Assembly: GCA_021498095.1 (NCBI GenBank)
Contig: JAIZWK010000001.1
Span: 3,210,001-3,242,000, forward strand
Source of the DNA: Candidatus Harpocratesius repetitus
GTDB lineage: Archaea; Asgardarchaeota; Lokiarchaeia; Sigyniarchaeales; Promethearchaeaceae
DNA length: 32,000 bases
Direction of reading: 5' to 3'
Shown: positions 13,144-20,642 of the stretch, in pieces
How positions within the stretch are numbered: position 1 is the first letter of the stretch
Layout: each line of letters starts with the position of its first letter
Position numbers and translations under genes: made by a program
Notes under the pieces: generated by a model
What the model saw: the letters and a program-made list of their open reading frames with translations, nothing else
The model's database searches: none
Told to the model about the DNA's origin: nothing

Positions 13144-14601
13144 TTATAATTCCTTTAAAGCATCTAGAATATCAACAATTTTCTGCCCGCTTTCCCGTAA
13201 TGTTTTAAATAATCTTGTTAGTAATTCAGTTGATCCTGCAAGAGTTTTATACAAAATCATTAAACTAAATTGCATAGGAACACTTAAAATTGCACCAGAA
13301 ATAATCATCATCTGCTGACTTAATTGCCCATATAGCTGATCTCTCTTTATTAATTGTTGATCTGCGAATGTCTGAGCAGAATCTTCACCAGATCTCTTTC
13401 CATACTGTGAAATTTCTTCATATAGATTTGGCTTTAATTCATCAAACGGAATTCCTAAATCTGATAGGGCTTTTTGTGATCCGAGATAAAATTGAGTCAA
13501 AATTTCTTCTTCAGAAAATTTTTGAAAGTTTTGAATGAAGGACTCAGGAGCCATTCCAGTTAAAACATCTAAAGCGTAATCCTTTAAATCATGAATAACA
13601 GATAATGGAACAAACTTGGTTGAATTTTCTTTGATGAATAGAAAAATATGACCGTAAACGCGCCGAATTTCATCATTCTGTAATAATTTCTCTAAATATT
13701 GTCCTCGTTCATTTAAAAGATGAAGACTAATAAAACCGAGAACTTGCAAGAATTTTGCTTCATCATTGGTGAAATGATCGAATAATTCATATGGGCTCAT
13801 TTTTGCAGCTTTTTGGATAATTTTCTTTAAAGGAACTCGAAGTAATCCTGCAGAATCTTCCATCATTTCATCTAACTGATCAATATCAATTTGATCGGTT
13901 ATTTTTGCCCAAAGATCATCTGCTCTTGATTCAAATTCAGTTTTCTGATCTAAAAATTGTTGGAAATACTTATCTTTGTCAAATCCCTCAATTAATTCAA
14001 AATCAGGGAATTCTTCTTGAGGAATTATCTGACATTGAAATTCAAAATATGAATCTCCATGTAGAGAATTTTTTGTATTTTTTAAAACAATGCGCTGATC
14101 TTTTCCTTTAAGTGCTAAAACAAAACTGCTACATTGGGTTAATAATCCAGCCATTAATGATCCATAACAATTTTCATTATAGAAAAATTTGTTCCAAGGC
14201 AGATTATCGCGCTCCTTATCCTTTCCGATGTCAAAACTCATGGGATCAACCTTAATTTTATAATTCAAAATTGGTCGTTCTGGATCAGAGCGATCCCATT
14301 CAGTAGTATATGATTGCATCGGGGTTCCAAAATATATTTGCCACATAAGAGGAATATATTCCAGTACTTTCTCTGGATTTGAGGGAAACATCCGGAAAAC
14401 AGCAGCTTGGCGTTGTGCACTCTCATCTGCGGCGGTATAACCTAATTTATAACTTAAATCAACTACCATCTTTGGATCATTTGTAATCTCATAAAGTTGT
14501 CGATAAATTTCACGATAAAATAATTGGTAAAATAATGATGGAACATGTCGACCCAAAGCAGTTCCTGCTTTTAATGCAATCCATTTAAATGTATTACTCA
14601 T
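13144..14601 (-). CDS. V4R/Bet3-fold domain protein with a long helical C-terminal region
   Basis: YKLGYTAA, MAGLLTQ and NSLHGDSYFEFQC fit the V4R layout with the Cys ligands largely lost. Overlaps the upstream V4R gene by 8 bp. Confidence 0.55.
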   Translation of the reverse strand: MSNTFKWIALKAGTALGRHVPSLFYQLFYREIYRQLYEITNDPKMVVDLSYKLGYTAADESAQRQAAVFRMFPSNPEKVLEYIPLMWQIYFGTPMQSYTTEWDRSDPERPILNYKIKVDPMSFDIGKDKERDNLPWNKFFYNENCYGSLMAGLLTQCSSFVLALKGKDQRIVLKNTKNSLHGDSYFEFQCQIIPQEEFPDFELIEGFDKDKYFQQFLDQKTEFESRADDLWAKITDQIDIDQLDEMMEDSAGLLRVPLKKIIQKAAKMSPYELFDHFTNDEAKFLQVLGFISLHLLNERGQYLEKLLQNDEIRRVYGHIFLFIKENSTKFVPLSVIHDLKDYALDVLTGMAPESFIQNFQKFSEEEILTQFYLGSQKALSDLGIPFDELKPNLYEEISQYGKRSGEDSAQTFADQQLIKRDQLYGQLSQQMMIISGAILSVPMQFSLMILYKTLAGSTELLTRLFKTLRESGQKIVDILDALKEL

Positions 14602-15097
14602 TTACTTTATCCTCCATCTTAACTTTGAATTCATGGATGCAAGATTTATTTCCCAAAGCTTTACTTTCTATTACTTCACTGCTTTCAATTTGATATCCCA
14701 TTCTAGCTAAAATTTCTTGAATCATTGCAACACTAATATTGCATCCTGGAATTGAAACATCTTGATATTTATATTTGCATAAGGCACAATTCTTATCTTC
14801 GACATAAATATGATTTCCTTTTTCAAATACATTCACTTTACTGCTTAGCGTAAGTTTATACAATTCTTTAATTAAATCAGGTAAATTTGTTGAGACAGGA
14901 GAAATTTCTAAAAAGAAAGTGGCACCTATATTGGTTCCCATTATTTTTAGATTACGAAATATTTCTTCATCGGATAGATCAAAGCGTTTCATAATCCTCT
15001 GCAACCAATATAAGGCATTGCGCATTTGATTAAATCCCATTCGTTTTGTGGCTAAAGCCTTGCGAGTATATTCAGATAATGGAGAATCGTTTGTCAT
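14594..15097 (-). CDS. V4R/Bet3-fold small protein
   Basis: MGTNIG, CALC, GCN and ESKALGNKSCIHEF motifs. Confidence 0.7.
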   Translation of the reverse strand: MTNDSPLSEYTRKALATKRMGFNQMRNALYWLQRIMKRFDLSDEEIFRNLKIMGTNIGATFFLEISPVSTNLPDLIKELYKLTLSSKVNVFEKGNHIYVEDKNCALCKYKYQDVSIPGCNISVAMIQEILARMGYQIESSEVIESKALGNKSCIHEFKVKMEDKVNE

Positions 15098-15242: not shown

Positions 15243-16631
15243 ATGAAAAAAAAACTTGGACGACCCAATAGAGTATCTTGGAAGAGTAAACCATTTTGTA
15301 ATCAATGTAAAATAGAGTGGGAAGAGCCTTTCTTATGGTGTCCAGAATGCAATTCATTACTCGAAATTCCTCCAATTAATGCACAAAAAAACCAGAAAAT
15401 AGACTCATTATGGGCTTTTTCAGGGTTTTTCCCTAATTTTTCGCGATGCATCTCATTAAATGAAGGATTTACATCTATTATAGATATCAAGAATATTCCG
15501 GACTTGAAAAAACTCAAAATGAAATTGGAATTTCGTAATCCTACAGGTAGTTTTCGTGATCGAGCAGCTGCACTCCTTGTTTCTGATGCACTTTCGCGAA
15601 AATTTTCAGAAATTCTTACTGTTAGTACAGGTTCGTTTAGCATCAGTATTGCAGCATATACTGCTCGAGCTGGACTTAAATCGATCAATTTTATTCCAGA
15701 AAATATTGAATTGACCAAAATTGAACAAATGAAGATTTATGGTTCAGAAGTGCGATTTCAAGGTAAGAATTTAGGTGAAACTATGCAAGATGCCCAAGAA
15801 TATTTAAAAAAACACTACTCAAAAGATTTATATGTTCCACTACCCAATCAGAATATTTTAACAATTGAAGGTCAAAAATCAATTGGATTGGAAATTGCCC
15901 TTCAAAATCCAGATATTGAGAATGTAGTGGTTCCAAGGGGTTCCGGCACTCTTCTTTATTCATTATATAAAGGATTTATAGATGCTCGAGAATCAGGATG
16001 GATTGATCGAATTCCAAGGATCTTTGCTGTAGCTTTAAAAAAATCAGCAGATTCTCAGCTAGTTGAATCTTTGGATATCAATGACCCTATGTTGTTATCT
16101 GAGGTCAGTCGTATTTTACAGGAAACAGGAGGAAAAGAAATACCAATTTCTGGTCAAAAAATGGCAGAACAAGCCATTGAACTAGCAAAAAATGAAGGAA
16201 TATTTATAGAGCCTGCTTCTGCATCAGTAATTGCAGGAGTACGGAGTATGAAGGAGAATTTAGGGATTGAATTACCTCGTACCTTGACATTATTAACAGG
16301 TTCTGGAATAAATGCAATGAATTTATTTGCTTCACAAATGCGGGATGTAAAAAAAGTGTTGTGGGGAGTAACCGCTACTTCTACTAAAAAATTTGAAATA
16401 CTTAGGGTAATTGCTGAAAGAAAGGCTCAGCATGGATATGGAATTTGGGTTGTATTGGGAAAAAGGAATTCAATTCAATCGATCTACCAGCATATCACTC
16501 AACTCGAAAAAGAAAACTTAATTATTAATACTCAGCCAAACAAAAAAAGAGCAAATTTCGAACTTACCGATAAGGGTAAAGAAACTTTTCTAAGAATGAG
16601 AGAATTAATTGAAGTTCACGGTCAAAAATAG
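15243..16631 (+). CDS. Threonine-synthase-like (PLP fold type II) protein lacking the Schiff-base Lys, with N-terminal Zn ribbon and C-terminal winged helix
   Basis: NPTGSFRDR in place of NPTGSFKDR; VPRGSGT; GIFIEPASA; C-terminal HGYGIW...QSIYQHITQLEKENLI...FELTDKG. Confidence 0.85.
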   Translation: MKKKLGRPNRVSWKSKPFCNQCKIEWEEPFLWCPECNSLLEIPPINAQKNQKIDSLWAFSGFFPNFSRCISLNEGFTSIIDIKNIPDLKKLKMKLEFRNPTGSFRDRAAALLVSDALSRKFSEILTVSTGSFSISIAAYTARAGLKSINFIPENIELTKIEQMKIYGSEVRFQGKNLGETMQDAQEYLKKHYSKDLYVPLPNQNILTIEGQKSIGLEIALQNPDIENVVVPRGSGTLLYSLYKGFIDARESGWIDRIPRIFAVALKKSADSQLVESLDINDPMLLSEVSRILQETGGKEIPISGQKMAEQAIELAKNEGIFIEPASASVIAGVRSMKENLGIELPRTLTLLTGSGINAMNLFASQMRDVKKVLWGVTATSTKKFEILRVIAERKAQHGYGIWVVLGKRNSIQSIYQHITQLEKENLIINTQPNKKRANFELTDKGKETFLRMRELIEVHGQK

Positions 16632-16683
16632 CACATCTTAATAATAACTATATTTCTAGTGCTTTTTACAATACTCAAGTAGA

Positions 16684-16740
16684 AACTTTAATATATAGTT
16701 GTAACTTTAATATCATGATTCCCAAGATCAAAATTGGGAA
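16684..16740 (+). promoter_or_regulatory. Promoter of the ECF S-component gene with a direct repeat and an inverted repeat
   Basis: AACTTTAATAT at 16684-16694 and 16703-16713; TTCCCAA-N8-TTGGGAA at 16719-16740. Confidence 0.4.
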
Positions 16741-16756
16741 GATGAAGTGAAAATCA

Positions 16757-17404
16757 ATGACTGAAAACTATGATTCTCATCCATATAATGAAGACCTAGC
16801 ACAAGAAAGAACAATTTTCAAGGTTGTTGGTGCTAATGATTCAATTAAAGTCGCAATAATGGCACTTATGACTGCATTAGAAACAGTTGCCACAAGCATT
16901 CTCAGTGTTAATATACCTCAAACTAATGGATATTTCAATTTAGGTGAATGCATTATTTTTATTACAGCAATTCTTTTCGGAGCCTATATAGGGGCATTCG
17001 TTGGAGGAGTAGGAGCAAGTTTAGCAGACGTGTTTTTAGGATATTTTTCGTTTGCGCCAATAACATTAATCGTTAAGGGTTTGGAAGGATTTTTTGTTGG
17101 TTGGGTTTATGATAAAATACGAAAAAATCCGAATAAAGCCAAACGATTTGGAATTAAATTTATTGCAATACTTTGTGGTGCCCCCTTTATGGTAGGAGGA
17201 TATTTTCTGGCAGAATTCTTTATCTTCAATTTAGGATGGGGTGCAGCTGCAGAATTAATCCCAAATCTTATTCAAGTCGGTATGGGTGCACTAATAGCAA
17301 TTCCTATCACACTATTACTTGAAGAAATACCACAAATTGATCAGTTAAGAGAAAGTATACTTATGAAACCTTCTATTGCTCAACCGGAGCAATTTCAAAA
17401 TTGA
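16757..17404 (+). CDS. ECF transporter S-component (COG4720/DUF1393, HmpT/PdxU2-like)
   Basis: IPQTNGYFNLGECIIFITAILFG...GGVGASLADVFLGY...APITLIVKG; about 6 TM segments. Confidence 0.85.
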   Translation: MTENYDSHPYNEDLAQERTIFKVVGANDSIKVAIMALMTALETVATSILSVNIPQTNGYFNLGECIIFITAILFGAYIGAFVGGVGASLADVFLGYFSFAPITLIVKGLEGFFVGWVYDKIRKNPNKAKRFGIKFIAILCGAPFMVGGYFLAEFFIFNLGWGAAAELIPNLIQVGMGALIAIPITLLLEEIPQIDQLRESILMKPSIAQPEQFQN

Positions 17405-17595
17405 TCACCAATATTTTCTTAATTTGTTTCAATTCTTTCTCTTTTTTACCCTTTATTATCCCTTTTTTGATGATTTAGAATATAAAATTTTTTTCGCTTT
17501 AATTTTTCTTGTCATTTTTGGGAAAATAAAAAATTTTATTGGAATTCAACATAATTGGTAGGTAACCCAAAGTAATTATTACGGTGAAAGTAAAA

Positions 17596-18402
17596 ATGAA
17601 TCAATTTGTGCTGGGTGGTAATTGGAAAATGCAAATCATCAAGGTGGAAGAGGCAGTTTTAATTGCTAAGGAAATTGCACAAGCCTTAGATGATATTACT
17701 TTAAAAAACGTTGATGTTTTTATCGCACCTTCATACAATGCGCTTTATTCAGTTGGACAAGCAATTAAAGGAAGTAAACTTAAATTGGCAGGGCAGAATA
17801 TGTATTTTCGCGATAAAGGCGCATTTACAGGGGAAATTTCCCCAGATTCACTAATAGATTCTGGTTGTGAATATGTTATTCTTGGACACAGTGAACGCCG
17901 ACGAATATTTGGTGAAACAAATGCCCAAATTAATCAAAAAGTAAAAAAAGCACTTGAAAAAGGATTAAAACCAGTCTTATGCATTGGTGAAACTGCTCAA
18001 GAACGAATAGATGGGAAAATGCAAGAAGTAAATAAAGAACAATTAGAAGAATCTTTAGCTGATATTGAACCAGAACAGATGAAAAATATTGTAATTGCTT
18101 ATGAACCTGTTTGGGCAATAAATAACCCATTTCTAAACCCAAACGTTGAAATTAAAACAGCCACACCTGAACAGGCAAATGAAGCCCACTCTTTTATTCG
18201 ATCATGGCTAGTCTCTAAATATGGAGAAATAGGAAATGAAATACCACTTCAATATGGGGGCTCAATGAAACCAGCTAATTGTGATGGTTTGCTTTCATTA
18301 CAGGATATTAATGGAGGTTTAATCGGTGGTGCTTCACTTTCTAAAGAAAATTTCCTACCTATAATTCAATCAGCTGTAAAAATTAGTGAAATAGATAACT
18401 GA
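17596..18402 (+). CDS. tpiA: Triosephosphate isomerase, long bacterial/eukaryotic type, with altered loop 6
   Basis: GNWKM, GAFTGEIS, GHSERR, AYEPVWAI, YGGSM, LIGGASL. ATG 17596 is preceded by GGTGA (the track start is GTG 17584). Confidence 0.93.
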   Translation: MNQFVLGGNWKMQIIKVEEAVLIAKEIAQALDDITLKNVDVFIAPSYNALYSVGQAIKGSKLKLAGQNMYFRDKGAFTGEISPDSLIDSGCEYVILGHSERRRIFGETNAQINQKVKKALEKGLKPVLCIGETAQERIDGKMQEVNKEQLEESLADIEPEQMKNIVIAYEPVWAINNPFLNPNVEIKTATPEQANEAHSFIRSWLVSKYGEIGNEIPLQYGGSMKPANCDGLLSLQDINGGLIGGASLSKENFLPIIQSAVKISEIDN

Positions 18403-18980: not shown

Positions 18981-20642
18981 TTATATATATTCTTTAAAAA
19001 GCTGCAGAATTTTCTCTGCAATATTATCAAGTTTTTCTTGAAATTCTGGCTGGTAAAGTTCAAGATCAGATTGTAATGATTCTGTTAGAATATTTTTTAT
19101 ATGAAATATGACTTCTCTCTGAGTATCTTCATCGAAAATAATTTCAGGCATAGAATTAGGATCTTCACTTAATTTATATGTGACAGTTTGTAAATACTGT
19201 GGAAAAGCCTTTTCAACACGACTGAAAAAATTCTTATTTGATTCATACTTTTCAGGATTATCTCTCCTATTAGCACGTGCGTAAATGTATAATTTCATAG
19301 CTGCAAGAAACTCATAGAAAAAGACCCTGGCTTCAAAATCGTACTTTTCACAAAATTTCCAATATTCTTCAAAGAAAAATCCTCGTTCCTTTTCTAAATT
19401 CTTATACAATTTGAAGAAAAACAAAGTCCATCCAAGATCTTGAGCAGGGTCTGAATAACAGCTCATTTCCCAGTCAATCAATCCAGCAATTTTTGTTCCG
19501 TTGACAATAATATTACTCGGCCGTAAATCTCCATGAATAAAAGAATATCCTGAAAGATGTAATAAAGGTTTATGTCCTTTAAACCATTTCCATAAAAACT
19601 TTATATCGGTATGAAATTCTTCATGTAACTTAATTTCCTTAAAGGATTTTAATACTTGGGCAACTTCGCTGAAAATATAATCTGAAAAAATCATCCGACG
19701 GGTAGATTTCACATTAAGATAGTATGATTGAAATTTTTTGGTTCTGATATTATGCAATTTACCAAGAATTTTAGCTAGATCAGCTAAGAATTGTCGGGTT
19801 TCTTCTTGCGTAAATGTATGAATAGTTTCAAGCACTGGTTGTCCAGGTAATTTTTCTAAAATAAGAAAACGGTAGCCTATGTAAGAAGGGTCTTCTTCAT
19901 AGAGATAGAATTTGGCCTTTGGAATATCAAGATCTTGTATTTTTTGTAGATTCTGTGATTCATTTTGAGCTTTAATGAGATTTTCGTTACGGGGATAAAT
20001 GCGTAAAATATAGACTCGAGTACTTTCTTGATTTTCAGCATCAAAATAATGAACTACGATTTCAAAAACTGCATTGTTTAGTCCAAATGCCAATTCTTTA
20101 CAATTTAGAATTTCGATAAATTTCTCTCCTGGTTCCATTAAAACTTGACCACGTCTGCGAAACCAAATTCTGTGTTGAAGATATTTATTTACCCGTTTTC
20201 CAACAGCTCTCGAATTTCTTAACCCTAAGGAAATTCTCAAATGACGAATAACATTTTCATTTGGAAGATCTTCTAATAATAAAAAAGGAAAGCCTAATAC
20301 TTGAAATGAAGATTCTACCACAATTTTTCCTAAAGGATAGATATCTAAATCTTTGATTGTCTTTATTTGTCGTAAATCTAATGCCATTTGATTATGTTTT
20401 TTTGCTTGTAAATAAAGAATTAATTTATATTTCCGACTATCGGGAATACGATCTGATGTTGTATATAAAATAGTAAGATCGATTATTGCATTCTTAGCAT
20501 TTTGTTCAATAATCTCCATCCGTTCAATATCACGGAATTTTTCATGAGAATATAGAAATTTACGAAGAATTCGTCGTCTTTTTAAGTATTTTACCAATGG
20601 AGGGAGTATTGAATCTAAATTGTCCAGTTTTTCTCTCTCCAT
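18981..20642 (-). CDS. APH/choline-kinase-like phosphotransferase with a duplicated N-lobe
   Basis: Brenner motif HGDLRPSN, IDWE, DPAQDLG; internal repeat of about 110 aa at the N-terminus. Confidence 0.85.
   Translation of the reverse strand: MEREKLDNLDSILPPLVKYLKRRRILRKFLYSHEKFRDIERMEIIEQNAKNAIIDLTILYTTSDRIPDSRKYKLILYLQAKKHNQMALDLRQIKTIKDLDIYPLGKIVVESSFQVLGFPFLLLEDLPNENVIRHLRISLGLRNSRAVGKRVNKYLQHRIWFRRRGQVLMEPGEKFIEILNCKELAFGLNNAVFEIVVHYFDAENQESTRVYILRIYPRNENLIKAQNESQNLQKIQDLDIPKAKFYLYEEDPSYIGYRFLILEKLPGQPVLETIHTFTQEETRQFLADLAKILGKLHNIRTKKFQSYYLNVKSTRRMIFSDYIFSEVAQVLKSFKEIKLHEEFHTDIKFLWKWFKGHKPLLHLSGYSFIHGDLRPSNIIVNGTKIAGLIDWEMSCYSDPAQDLGWTLFFFKLYKNLEKERGFFFEEYWKFCEKYDFEARVFFYEFLAAMKLYIYARANRRDNPEKYESNKNFFSRVEKAFPQYLQTVTYKLSEDPNSMPEIIFDEDTQREVIFHIKNILTESLQSDLELYQPEFQEKLDNIAEKILQLFKEYI

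Follow-up and report, generated by a model that had tools for sequence, protein, structure and literature searches.

Introduction

Archaeal vitamin regulators built from enzyme domains include ThiR, with its ThiN domain, and RbkR, with its riboflavin-kinase domain; in this design a pathway or cofactor-binding enzyme domain is joined to a winged helix-turn-helix (wHTH), and the protein controls genes for vitamin synthesis and uptake. For vitamin B6 the closest described systems are the bacterial MocR regulators (PdxR, GabR, TauR), in which the fold of a pyridoxal 5′-phosphate (PLP) enzyme is fused to a winged helix. PdxR regulons comprise pdxST and the gene for the PF07155 importer, pdxU, and MocR regulators are reported to be absent from Archaea (PMC5320631). 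Here we analyse two adjacent genes in a 32,000-nucleotide stretch of DNA (the window), which covers positions 3,210,001-3,242,000 of the closed 4.36-Mb chromosome of the Asgard archaeon Candidatus Harpocratesius repetitus (Promethearchaeota, Lokiarchaeia-type; ~30% G+C). The first, hereafter the regulator, encodes a threonine synthase (ThrC)-like PLP domain with a C-terminal PadR-like wHTH, and the second encodes a predicted S-component of an energy-coupling factor (ECF) importer. We consider it likely, though well short of certain, that the regulator is a one-component B6-responsive transcription factor, a ligand-bound repressor of the importer and not an enzyme.

The locus shares with MocR systems the fusion of a PLP-enzyme fold to a winged helix, and PdxR has the same two kinds of target. 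MocR proteins sense through a fold-type I aminotransferase domain, carry an N-terminal GntR-type wHTH and keep the PLP lysine, whereas the regulator has a fold-type II ThrC sensor, a C-terminal PadR-like wHTH and an N-terminal zinc ribbon, and its family has mostly lost the lysine. With neither the GntR-type wHTH nor the fold-type I domain it is not a MocR protein, and the likeness to PdxR would be one of function, namely the predicted control of pdxST or B6 uptake via nearby operators. From ThiR and RbkR it differs in its vitamin and its fold, and in having a sensor derived from a cofactor-using enzyme rather than from an enzyme of the B6 pathway. A first-pass annotation of the window had proposed an archaeal analogue of PdxR built from threonine synthase, and the gene linkage, shared operator and complementary distribution of S-component and PdxS described below support that proposal. 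Each sequence feature that it listed is present at the coordinates it gave, and of the four refuting conditions accessible to sequence analysis none came out against it. In the open-access literature we found no prior description of the regulator family or of an archaeal B6 regulator.

Architecture of the predicted regulator

The regulator gene, its parts and the gene that follows it are located in the window as follows.

15243..16631, + strand: regulator gene, an open reading frame (ORF) of 462 aa with an N-terminal zinc ribbon, a ThrC-like PLP domain and a C-terminal PadR-like wHTH
15297..15350, + strand: four-Cys zinc ribbon (C19, C22, C33, C36), its columns at least 90% conserved in the family alignment
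15450..16301, + strand: PALP (fold-type II) domain, residues 70-353 (PF00291, 3.1e-46)
15555..15557, + strand: Arg105 codon CGT at the position of the Schiff-base Lys, from alignment to SFKDR of solved ThrC
15624..15635, + strand: S128-T-G-S131, counterpart of STGN, from alignment to solved ThrC
15930..15950, + strand: V230-P-R-G-S-G-T236, the PLP-phosphate loop, aligned to PVGNAGN of 2zsj
16374..16619, + strand: PadR-like wHTH and C-terminal helix, residues 378-459, from the secondary structure of the full model
16757..17404, + strand: ECF S-component gene, 215 aa, HmpT/PdxU2-like, a predicted B6 vitamer importer (PF07155)

An AlphaFold2 model of the full regulator, built with 60 relatives in the alignment, has a mean predicted local distance difference test score (pLDDT) of 90.8. 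Its best solved matches in Foldseek are the ThrC structures 2zsj, 3aey, 6cgq and 1uim (template modelling (TM) score by target about 0.78-0.80), with 2zsj matched at 3.6e-22 and a TM by target of 0.78. Among reviewed proteins the best fold matches are the archaeal ThrC of Methanosarcina (Q8TQD4) and Methanocaldococcus (Q58860), in alignments that begin at residue 16 and therefore include the four-Cys zinc ribbon. The likeness to archaeal ThrC (TIGR00260; Q58860; 2zsj, 1uim, 6cgq) thus covers fold and zinc ribbon (TM by hit 0.77-0.80), and the phosphate loop, EPASA and TGSG motifs are kept as well; the regulator differs from these enzymes in having no Schiff-base lysine, an extra 85-aa wHTH, scores below the curated cut-offs, a clade of its own and another gene context.

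HMMER alignment to the solved ThrC 2zsj and 2d1f places R105, within N-P-T-G-S-F-R-D-R, on the Schiff-base Lys of SFKDR, and T352-G-S-G355 on LTGNG. The first-pass annotation had held that this arginine is no read error, CGT differing from AAA/AAG at all three bases, and the recurrence of SFRDR in ~100 of 119 homologues, the Thermococcus and Thermosphaera proteins included, bears this out. It had also taken the phosphate loop VPRGSGT as kept; besides aligning with the loop of 2zsj, this has P231, G233 and G235 invariant and S234 in 46/49 R-type sequences. The Asn of STGN contacts PLP O3′. The reported replacement of this motif by STGS is indeed present at S128-S131, but it does not extend to the whole family, with position 131 being S in 31/49 and N in 17/49 R-type relatives.

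The C-terminal wHTH that the first-pass annotation had read from the letters is recovered by profile and by structure. PadR (PF03551) matches residues 386-449 at 1.9e-5 and 25 bits, slightly under the 27-bit gathering cut-off, and reaches 43 bits in one relative (L069). Searched against the PDB by sequence, the last 91 residues on their own had no usable match; a family profile and a fold search were used instead. The profile of the family wHTH matches solved PadR proteins at 1.4e-6, and the last 89 residues modelled alone (pLDDT 85) find PadR-like 4esb as best match (TM 0.80, root-mean-square deviation 2.5 Å). With three helices, a beta wing and a C-terminal helix, the domain is a PadR-like wHTH. 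Like PadR regulators (4esb, 5dym and B. subtilis PadR, 5x11) the protein has a wHTH followed by a C-terminal helix and is predicted to bind palindromic operators as a dimer; unlike them, it carries the wHTH only as a module on a 370-aa sensor body, and its predicted dimer interface is in the ThrC-like body.

This interface comes from a homodimer model with PLP included, which reached an ipSAE of 0.84 against 0.00 for the best of 3 controls. As solved ThrC dimers exist, this pass may reflect only the likeness to them. Between runs at least 50% of contacts are shared, the partner pLDDT is at least 81, and the mark used is reached by 20/30 proteins solved as one-chain pairs and by 1/23 solved as single chains.

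Curated models and labels could be taken to mean that the protein is an active threonine synthase, or another PLP enzyme with a mere DNA-binding tail. The best NCBIfam model, NF004170 'threonine synthase', spans the full regulator, tail included, and the source annotations name it a PLP-dependent enzyme or threonine synthase. However, NF004170 gives 264.5 bits against a cut-off of 421 and TIGR00260 gives 87.8-90.5 bits against 167.1, the family has R, L, I, M or V in place of the Schiff-base lysine, and the gene context is never threonine biosynthesis, one Bathyarchaeia group excepted. We therefore regard an active enzyme as very improbable, and a protein that has the fold of threonine synthase but neither its Schiff-base lysine nor its curated scores would not be classed as one. 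NF004170 (PRK05638) is a 442-position equivalog for 'threonine synthase' that also spans the C-terminal wHTH, and it may spread the enzyme name onto regulators of this family.

The Schiff-base position across the family

In a maximum-likelihood tree rooted on plain ThrC, the HTH-fused forms make up a single clade apart from plain ThrC (Shimodaira-Hasegawa-like approximate likelihood ratio test, SH-aLRT, 100). That ThrC-HTH fusions might exist in other archaea had been anticipated; this one clade runs across many archaeal phyla, with members in Bathyarchaeia, Thor-, Hermod-, Heimdall- and Lokiarchaeia, Nitrososphaeria, Thermoplasmata, Thermococci and others. The lysine is kept in every plain ThrC. 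Inside the HTH-fused clade the position holds R, K, L, I, M or V, with at least 10 state changes and with K-types nested among R-types, while P-x-G-S-G, E-P-A-S-A, T-G-S-G and N204 remain conserved in the regulator clade. The pocket is thus constrained and the covalent anchor is not. With R, L, I, M or V at the lysine position, catalysis by the regulator is excluded insofar as sequence can show it. The first-pass view of the protein as a pseudoenzyme holds for the lysine lost here but not for a uniform loss in the clade, and its emphasis should be softened because some members with the lysine have the same neighbour and the same operator.

Four HTH-fused Nitrososphaeria proteins (L116, L120, L123 and L136) have Ile, Met or Leu at the Schiff-base position. 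An S-component lies near only L136 among them, none has the AAGTT-NN-AACTT core described below, and their operator and targets may differ.

The S-component and the predicted import of B6

The next gene had been called an HmpT/PdxU2-like ECF S-component, and the profile and structure matches agree. PF07155 gives 115.6 bits against a cut-off of 26.7 (3.2e-33), and with this score and six predicted helices the product can be placed among the ECF S-components of PF07155/COG4720, the family of PdxU and PdxU2/HmpT (PMC9997740). Among solved structures only 4HZU chain S (HmpT/PdxU2) is matched at E<=1, with 3.9e-17 over residues 31-185. This Lactobacillus brevis protein, originally named HmpT, was subsequently found by mass spectrometry to carry pyridoxamine (PMC4860826), and four of its six conserved pocket residues, E41, Y120, N140 and Q143, have kept counterparts in E64, Y149, N170 and Q173 (residue list from the same paper). 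The two proteins are ~30% identical; the one in the window is archaeal, has a 30-residue N-terminal extension and has Lys for H84 and Glu for Q87, and its substrate is predicted.

The distribution of the S-component complements that of the PLP synthase subunit PdxS. Among 400 Asgard genomes PdxS occurs in 50 and an S-component homologue (E<=1e-12) in 311, the latter being present in 302/350 PdxS-negative genomes (86%) against 9/50 PdxS-positive ones (18%). Genus g13 (family f3) has PdxS in 4/4 genomes and the S-component in 0/4, and the switch between the two is seen also in families f7, f14, f15, f18, f20 and f33. In four Heimdall genomes of genus g41 PdxS is present and the S-component absent, and the regulator is kept. 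We attach no P value to this complementarity, as related genomes are not independent. The regulator itself is matched at 1e-20 in 286/400 Asgard genomes, a figure unusable as its distribution because plain ThrC genes pass 1e-20 too.

In the closed chromosome studied here (G000) we find none of PdxS, PdxT and PdxJ, the named control genomes being matched as expected, and at least eight class I/II aminotransferases. With PLP enzymes present and the genes for PLP synthesis absent, import of a precursor is needed. No ThrC above the TIGR00260 cut-off is found in the genome, while all 14 control genomes have one; TIGR00260 matches only two of its proteins, the regulator at 87.8 bits and a 325-aa fold-II protein at 58 bits. 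By gene content the organism is auxotrophic for both B6 and threonine. CbiQ/EcfT is encoded at five places and fused EcfAA′ genes lie elsewhere in the genome, so an energising module is available; one such module lies at about 2.209-2.212 Mb of the chromosome.

The S-component might nevertheless carry a micronutrient other than B6, such as hydroxymethylpyrimidine, riboflavin or another compound, which the regulator would then sense. PF07155 takes its name from riboflavin, the initial assignment of HmpT was to hydroxymethylpyrimidine (PMC4860826), and the two changed pocket residues and the missing pyridoxal kinase (PdxK), taken up in the Discussion, would fit such a substrate. Against this, RibU structures give no match to the S-component at E<=1, its NCBIfam RibU and FolT scores are far under the cut-offs, it follows the absence of PdxS in the proportions given above, and the operator at its gene is also the one at the pdxS-pdxT neighbours. 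We judge a non-B6 importer to be quite improbable. On the substrate family, which the first-pass annotation had seen as decisive for its proposal, the nearest solved relative and the complementary distribution point to B6, and four of the six pocket residues are kept.

Gene neighbourhood across archaea

We surveyed 41 Asgard loci of ~15 kb each around homologues of the regulator and clustered their ORFs. An S-component homologue lies 0-2 genes from the regulator in 25 of them and is the sole widely recurrent partner; its gene is co-directional with the regulator in the Loki and Heimdall loci, and in other families the two are convergent. Downstream of the S-component gene the Heimdall loci have a fused EcfAA′ gene and then an EcfT gene, and the same order of regulator, S-component, EcfAA′ and EcfT is found in Thermosphaera (Thermoproteota). 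In genomes with PdxS the regulator is found near the pdxS gene instead. Eight genomes of a single Asgard genus (family f18) have K-to-Leu forms with a PadR domain in divergent orientation to pdxS-pdxT, and in G005 one such form is co-directional with pdxS-pdxT; an R-type regulator lies two genes from pdxST in the Heimdall genome G020 and adjoins pdxS, at a contig end, in G028; and an L-type regulator stands beside pdxST in one Thermoplasmata genome.

A wider scan, with one genome per species, gave 80 loci with 31 HTH-fused forms and 48 plain K-type ThrC. Within 6 kb, 22/31 of the HTH-fused forms have an S-component (21) or pdxS-pdxT (1, Thermoplasmata), whereas this is so for 0/48 of the plain ThrC. 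The comparison with plain ThrC is the cleanest control of the analysis, and the survey of genomic context that the first-pass annotation had called for therefore comes out in favour of linkage to B6 genes.

The predicted operator

The upstream regions of the S-component genes have in common a palindrome, ~TATwCAAGTT-NN-AACTTGwATA, and the same palindrome recurs in the spacers between pdxS and the regulator gene and, in G020, ahead of pdxS. Perfect AAGTT-NN-AACTT sites number 28 in the survey loci, which total 640 kb, against ~3 expected from base composition, and cores with <=1 mismatch number 108 against 60.8 +/- 7.7 in shuffles. For 23/28 of the perfect sites the start of an S-component or pdxS gene follows 10-76 bp downstream, and the core motif is present too for Bathyarchaeia R-types and for K-type fusions. 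The motif also located a target blind. In L034 (from G137, closed, 6 Mb) the regulator has no S-component neighbour, and a perfect site at the edge of the locus led us to a non-adjacent one in the flank, a 248-aa PF07155 protein that is 44% identical to the window S-component and has two sites directly upstream, 7 kb from the regulator.

In the window, the 125-bp spacer between the two genes holds two tandem copies of the predicted operator, 19 bp apart, each running into TTTAATAT.

16677..16688, no strand: predicted operator site 1, AAGTAGAAACTT, with 1 mismatch to AAGTT-NN-AACTT, then TTTAATAT at 16687-16694
16696..16707, no strand: predicted operator site 2, TAGTTGTAACTT, with 1 mismatch, overlapping the TATA-like TTTAATAT at 16706-16713

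An operator block of ~40 bp is conserved in two same-genus loci (L032 and L033), while the DNA that flanks it is not. Perfect copies of the 13-mer GWAACTTTAATAT number 4 in the genome, against 3.4 expected, and only in this spacer do two of them stand in tandem. No further targets can be called in G000, the other matches to GWAACTTTAATAT or to the core being in coding or convergent regions. The exact 14-mer CAAGTTNNAACTTG, sought in five other genomes, gave one match in G137, at control frequency and beside a 150-aa ORF without a Pfam match, which we ascribe to chance. The reading of GAAACTTTAATAT as no more than a generic promoter of TFB recognition element (BRE) and TATA box was rejected, as it is not enriched in the genome.

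The TTTAATAT part probably serves as the TATA box. Archaeal repressors usually bind over the TATA-like box or between it and the start of the gene. Most other loci have the palindrome 10-40 bp ahead of the start codon, either over a TATA-like box or on its downstream side, and site 2 of the window overlaps the likely BRE/TATA. The position of the operator suggests repression, and it is from this that we infer the sign of regulation. PdxR differs in this respect, the apo-protein being an activator of pdxST (PMC5320631), and a regulator that senses B6 in the same way but acts as an activator, lowered by PLP, would be an alternative to a ligand-bound repressor. Site 1, upstream of the likely BRE/TATA, could suit activation. 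However, site 2 overlaps TTTAATAT and the palindromes of most loci are at or after the TATA-like box, so that we hold an activator to be improbable.

Other genes at the locus

Several further neighbours were considered as functional partners and rejected as lineage-specific synteny, namely an acyl-CoA synthetase, NiFe-hydrogenase subunits, GINS, triosephosphate isomerase (TIM) and two upstream genes without a Pfam match. The TIM, of 272 aa and the long bacterial/eukaryotic type (PF00121, 4.9e-81), is encoded at 17584-18402 (+) of the window, directly after the S-component gene; the pair of S-component and TIM genes is syntenic across the Loki family and is still together in G137 (L091), 7 kb from the regulator. 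The two upstream genes (485 aa and 167 aa) overlap each other at 13144-15097 (-), and their synteny with the regulator extends to six or seven same-family loci. At 18981-20642 (-) a 553-aa protein with an aminoglycoside phosphotransferase (APH)-type phosphotransferase domain (PF01636, 1.9e-31) is encoded, which is conserved in same-genus loci.

In genus g6 (L037-L041, with Promethearchaeum syntrophicum MK-D1 as L041/L106) the regulator and S-component genes are separated by an unannotated gene of ~300 aa, which has no Pfam match and is on the opposite strand, and the region common to this gene and the S-component gene has two direct repeats, ATATTAAAGTTwC-N-TTTTGAATAT. In Thermococcus barossii (CP015101.1, L080) the genes after the R-type regulator are a 117-aa ORF and the one for ribose-5-phosphate isomerase A, with neither S-component nor pdxST there. 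Ribose 5-phosphate is a substrate of PdxS.

Discussion

We propose that the ThrC-like body of the regulator, without a Schiff-base lysine, would hold a B6 vitamer only reversibly, and we infer non-covalent binding, repression rather than activation and, because the phosphate loop is retained, PLP as the most likely ligand. The protein would dimerise via its ThrC-like body and read the AAGTT-NN-AACTT palindrome with its two PadR-like winged helices, at two tandem sites that are predicted to overlap the TATA-like boxes of the adjacent S-component gene. The S-component would work as an importer of the HmpT/PdxU2 type with ECF energising modules encoded elsewhere. With sufficient B6, the liganded regulator would occupy the operator and keep the importer off; with B6 scarce, it would leave the operator. 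As the organism has no PLP synthase, regulator and importer would together be its B6 homeostat. In relatives that have pdxS-pdxT, the same family and operator would act on those genes and repress them.

Several observations weigh against this model. Two of the six HmpT pocket residues are changed in the S-component (H84 -> K107 and Q87 -> E110). No pyridoxal kinase passes PF08543 in G000, the single weak match being a generic PfkB kinase (C1:1672080-1673105), which would leave phosphorylation of an imported vitamer unaccounted for unless PLP itself is imported. The core 12-mer is not enriched in this genome, with 13 perfect sites against 17.9 expected; because of this, and because both window sites carry one mismatch, the operator call in the window rests on conservation across genomes, and the protein is therefore read as a local regulator of the S-component gene. 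Among the HTH-fused forms 9/31 have neither S-component nor pdxST nearby, Thermococcus and Nitrososphaeria members included, and many of the genomes that we counted are kin, so that the counts overstate independence. Finally, a true thrC is divergent from the regulator in four related Bathyarchaeia loci, which could point to a link with the threonine pathway.

In these four loci (L095, L096, L099 and L101) the thrC is of K-type and ~420 aa, it is divergent from an R-type regulator, and the S-component gene then follows the regulator. This thrC may be a trace of the duplication that produced the regulator, or a member of its regulon. It would also fit an amino-acid sensor that works as GabR does, in which PLP is a fixed cofactor, the effector is threonine, O-phosphohomoserine or a similar compound, and the S-component imports that or a related compound. 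Such a design is known from MocR members such as GabR (PMC5320631), and the descent of the domain from ThrC, its kept pocket motifs and the lysine of some clade members are in keeping with it. However, the targets found across phyla are pdxS-pdxT and a PdxU2-like S-component under one common operator, S-component and PdxS are complementary in distribution, the linkage to thrC is confined to one related group, and a protein without the lysine is less likely to hold a fixed cofactor tightly. We consider a GabR-like sensor unlikely, and continue to favour a repressor that responds to B6 itself.

For the family as a whole, we lean towards the view that B6-responsive transcription factors form a pan-archaeal family, of which the window, from a closed Asgard genome, holds the first member. 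This would be the first archaeal B6 regulator known and the first case of a fold-type II PLP enzyme serving as a sensor, with a lysine that is dispensable and drifts among R, K, L, I, M and V, a cofactor that has become a freely exchanging signal, and one operator used for uptake or for synthesis according to lineage. B6 regulation in Archaea appears to be undescribed, and a family with a defined operator would supply a regulator for it. The clade would also offer a natural experiment in how a cofactor-dependent enzyme turns into a sensor of its cofactor by loss of the covalent anchor. On this reading the label of threonine synthase on these proteins would be a widespread annotation error, one that wrongly completes the threonine pathway in metabolic reconstructions. 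The model further predicts that most Asgard archaea, cultured ones such as MK-D1 included, are B6 auxotrophs that rely on a regulated ECF importer, which would bear on the design of media and on ideas of syntrophic dependence in these organisms.

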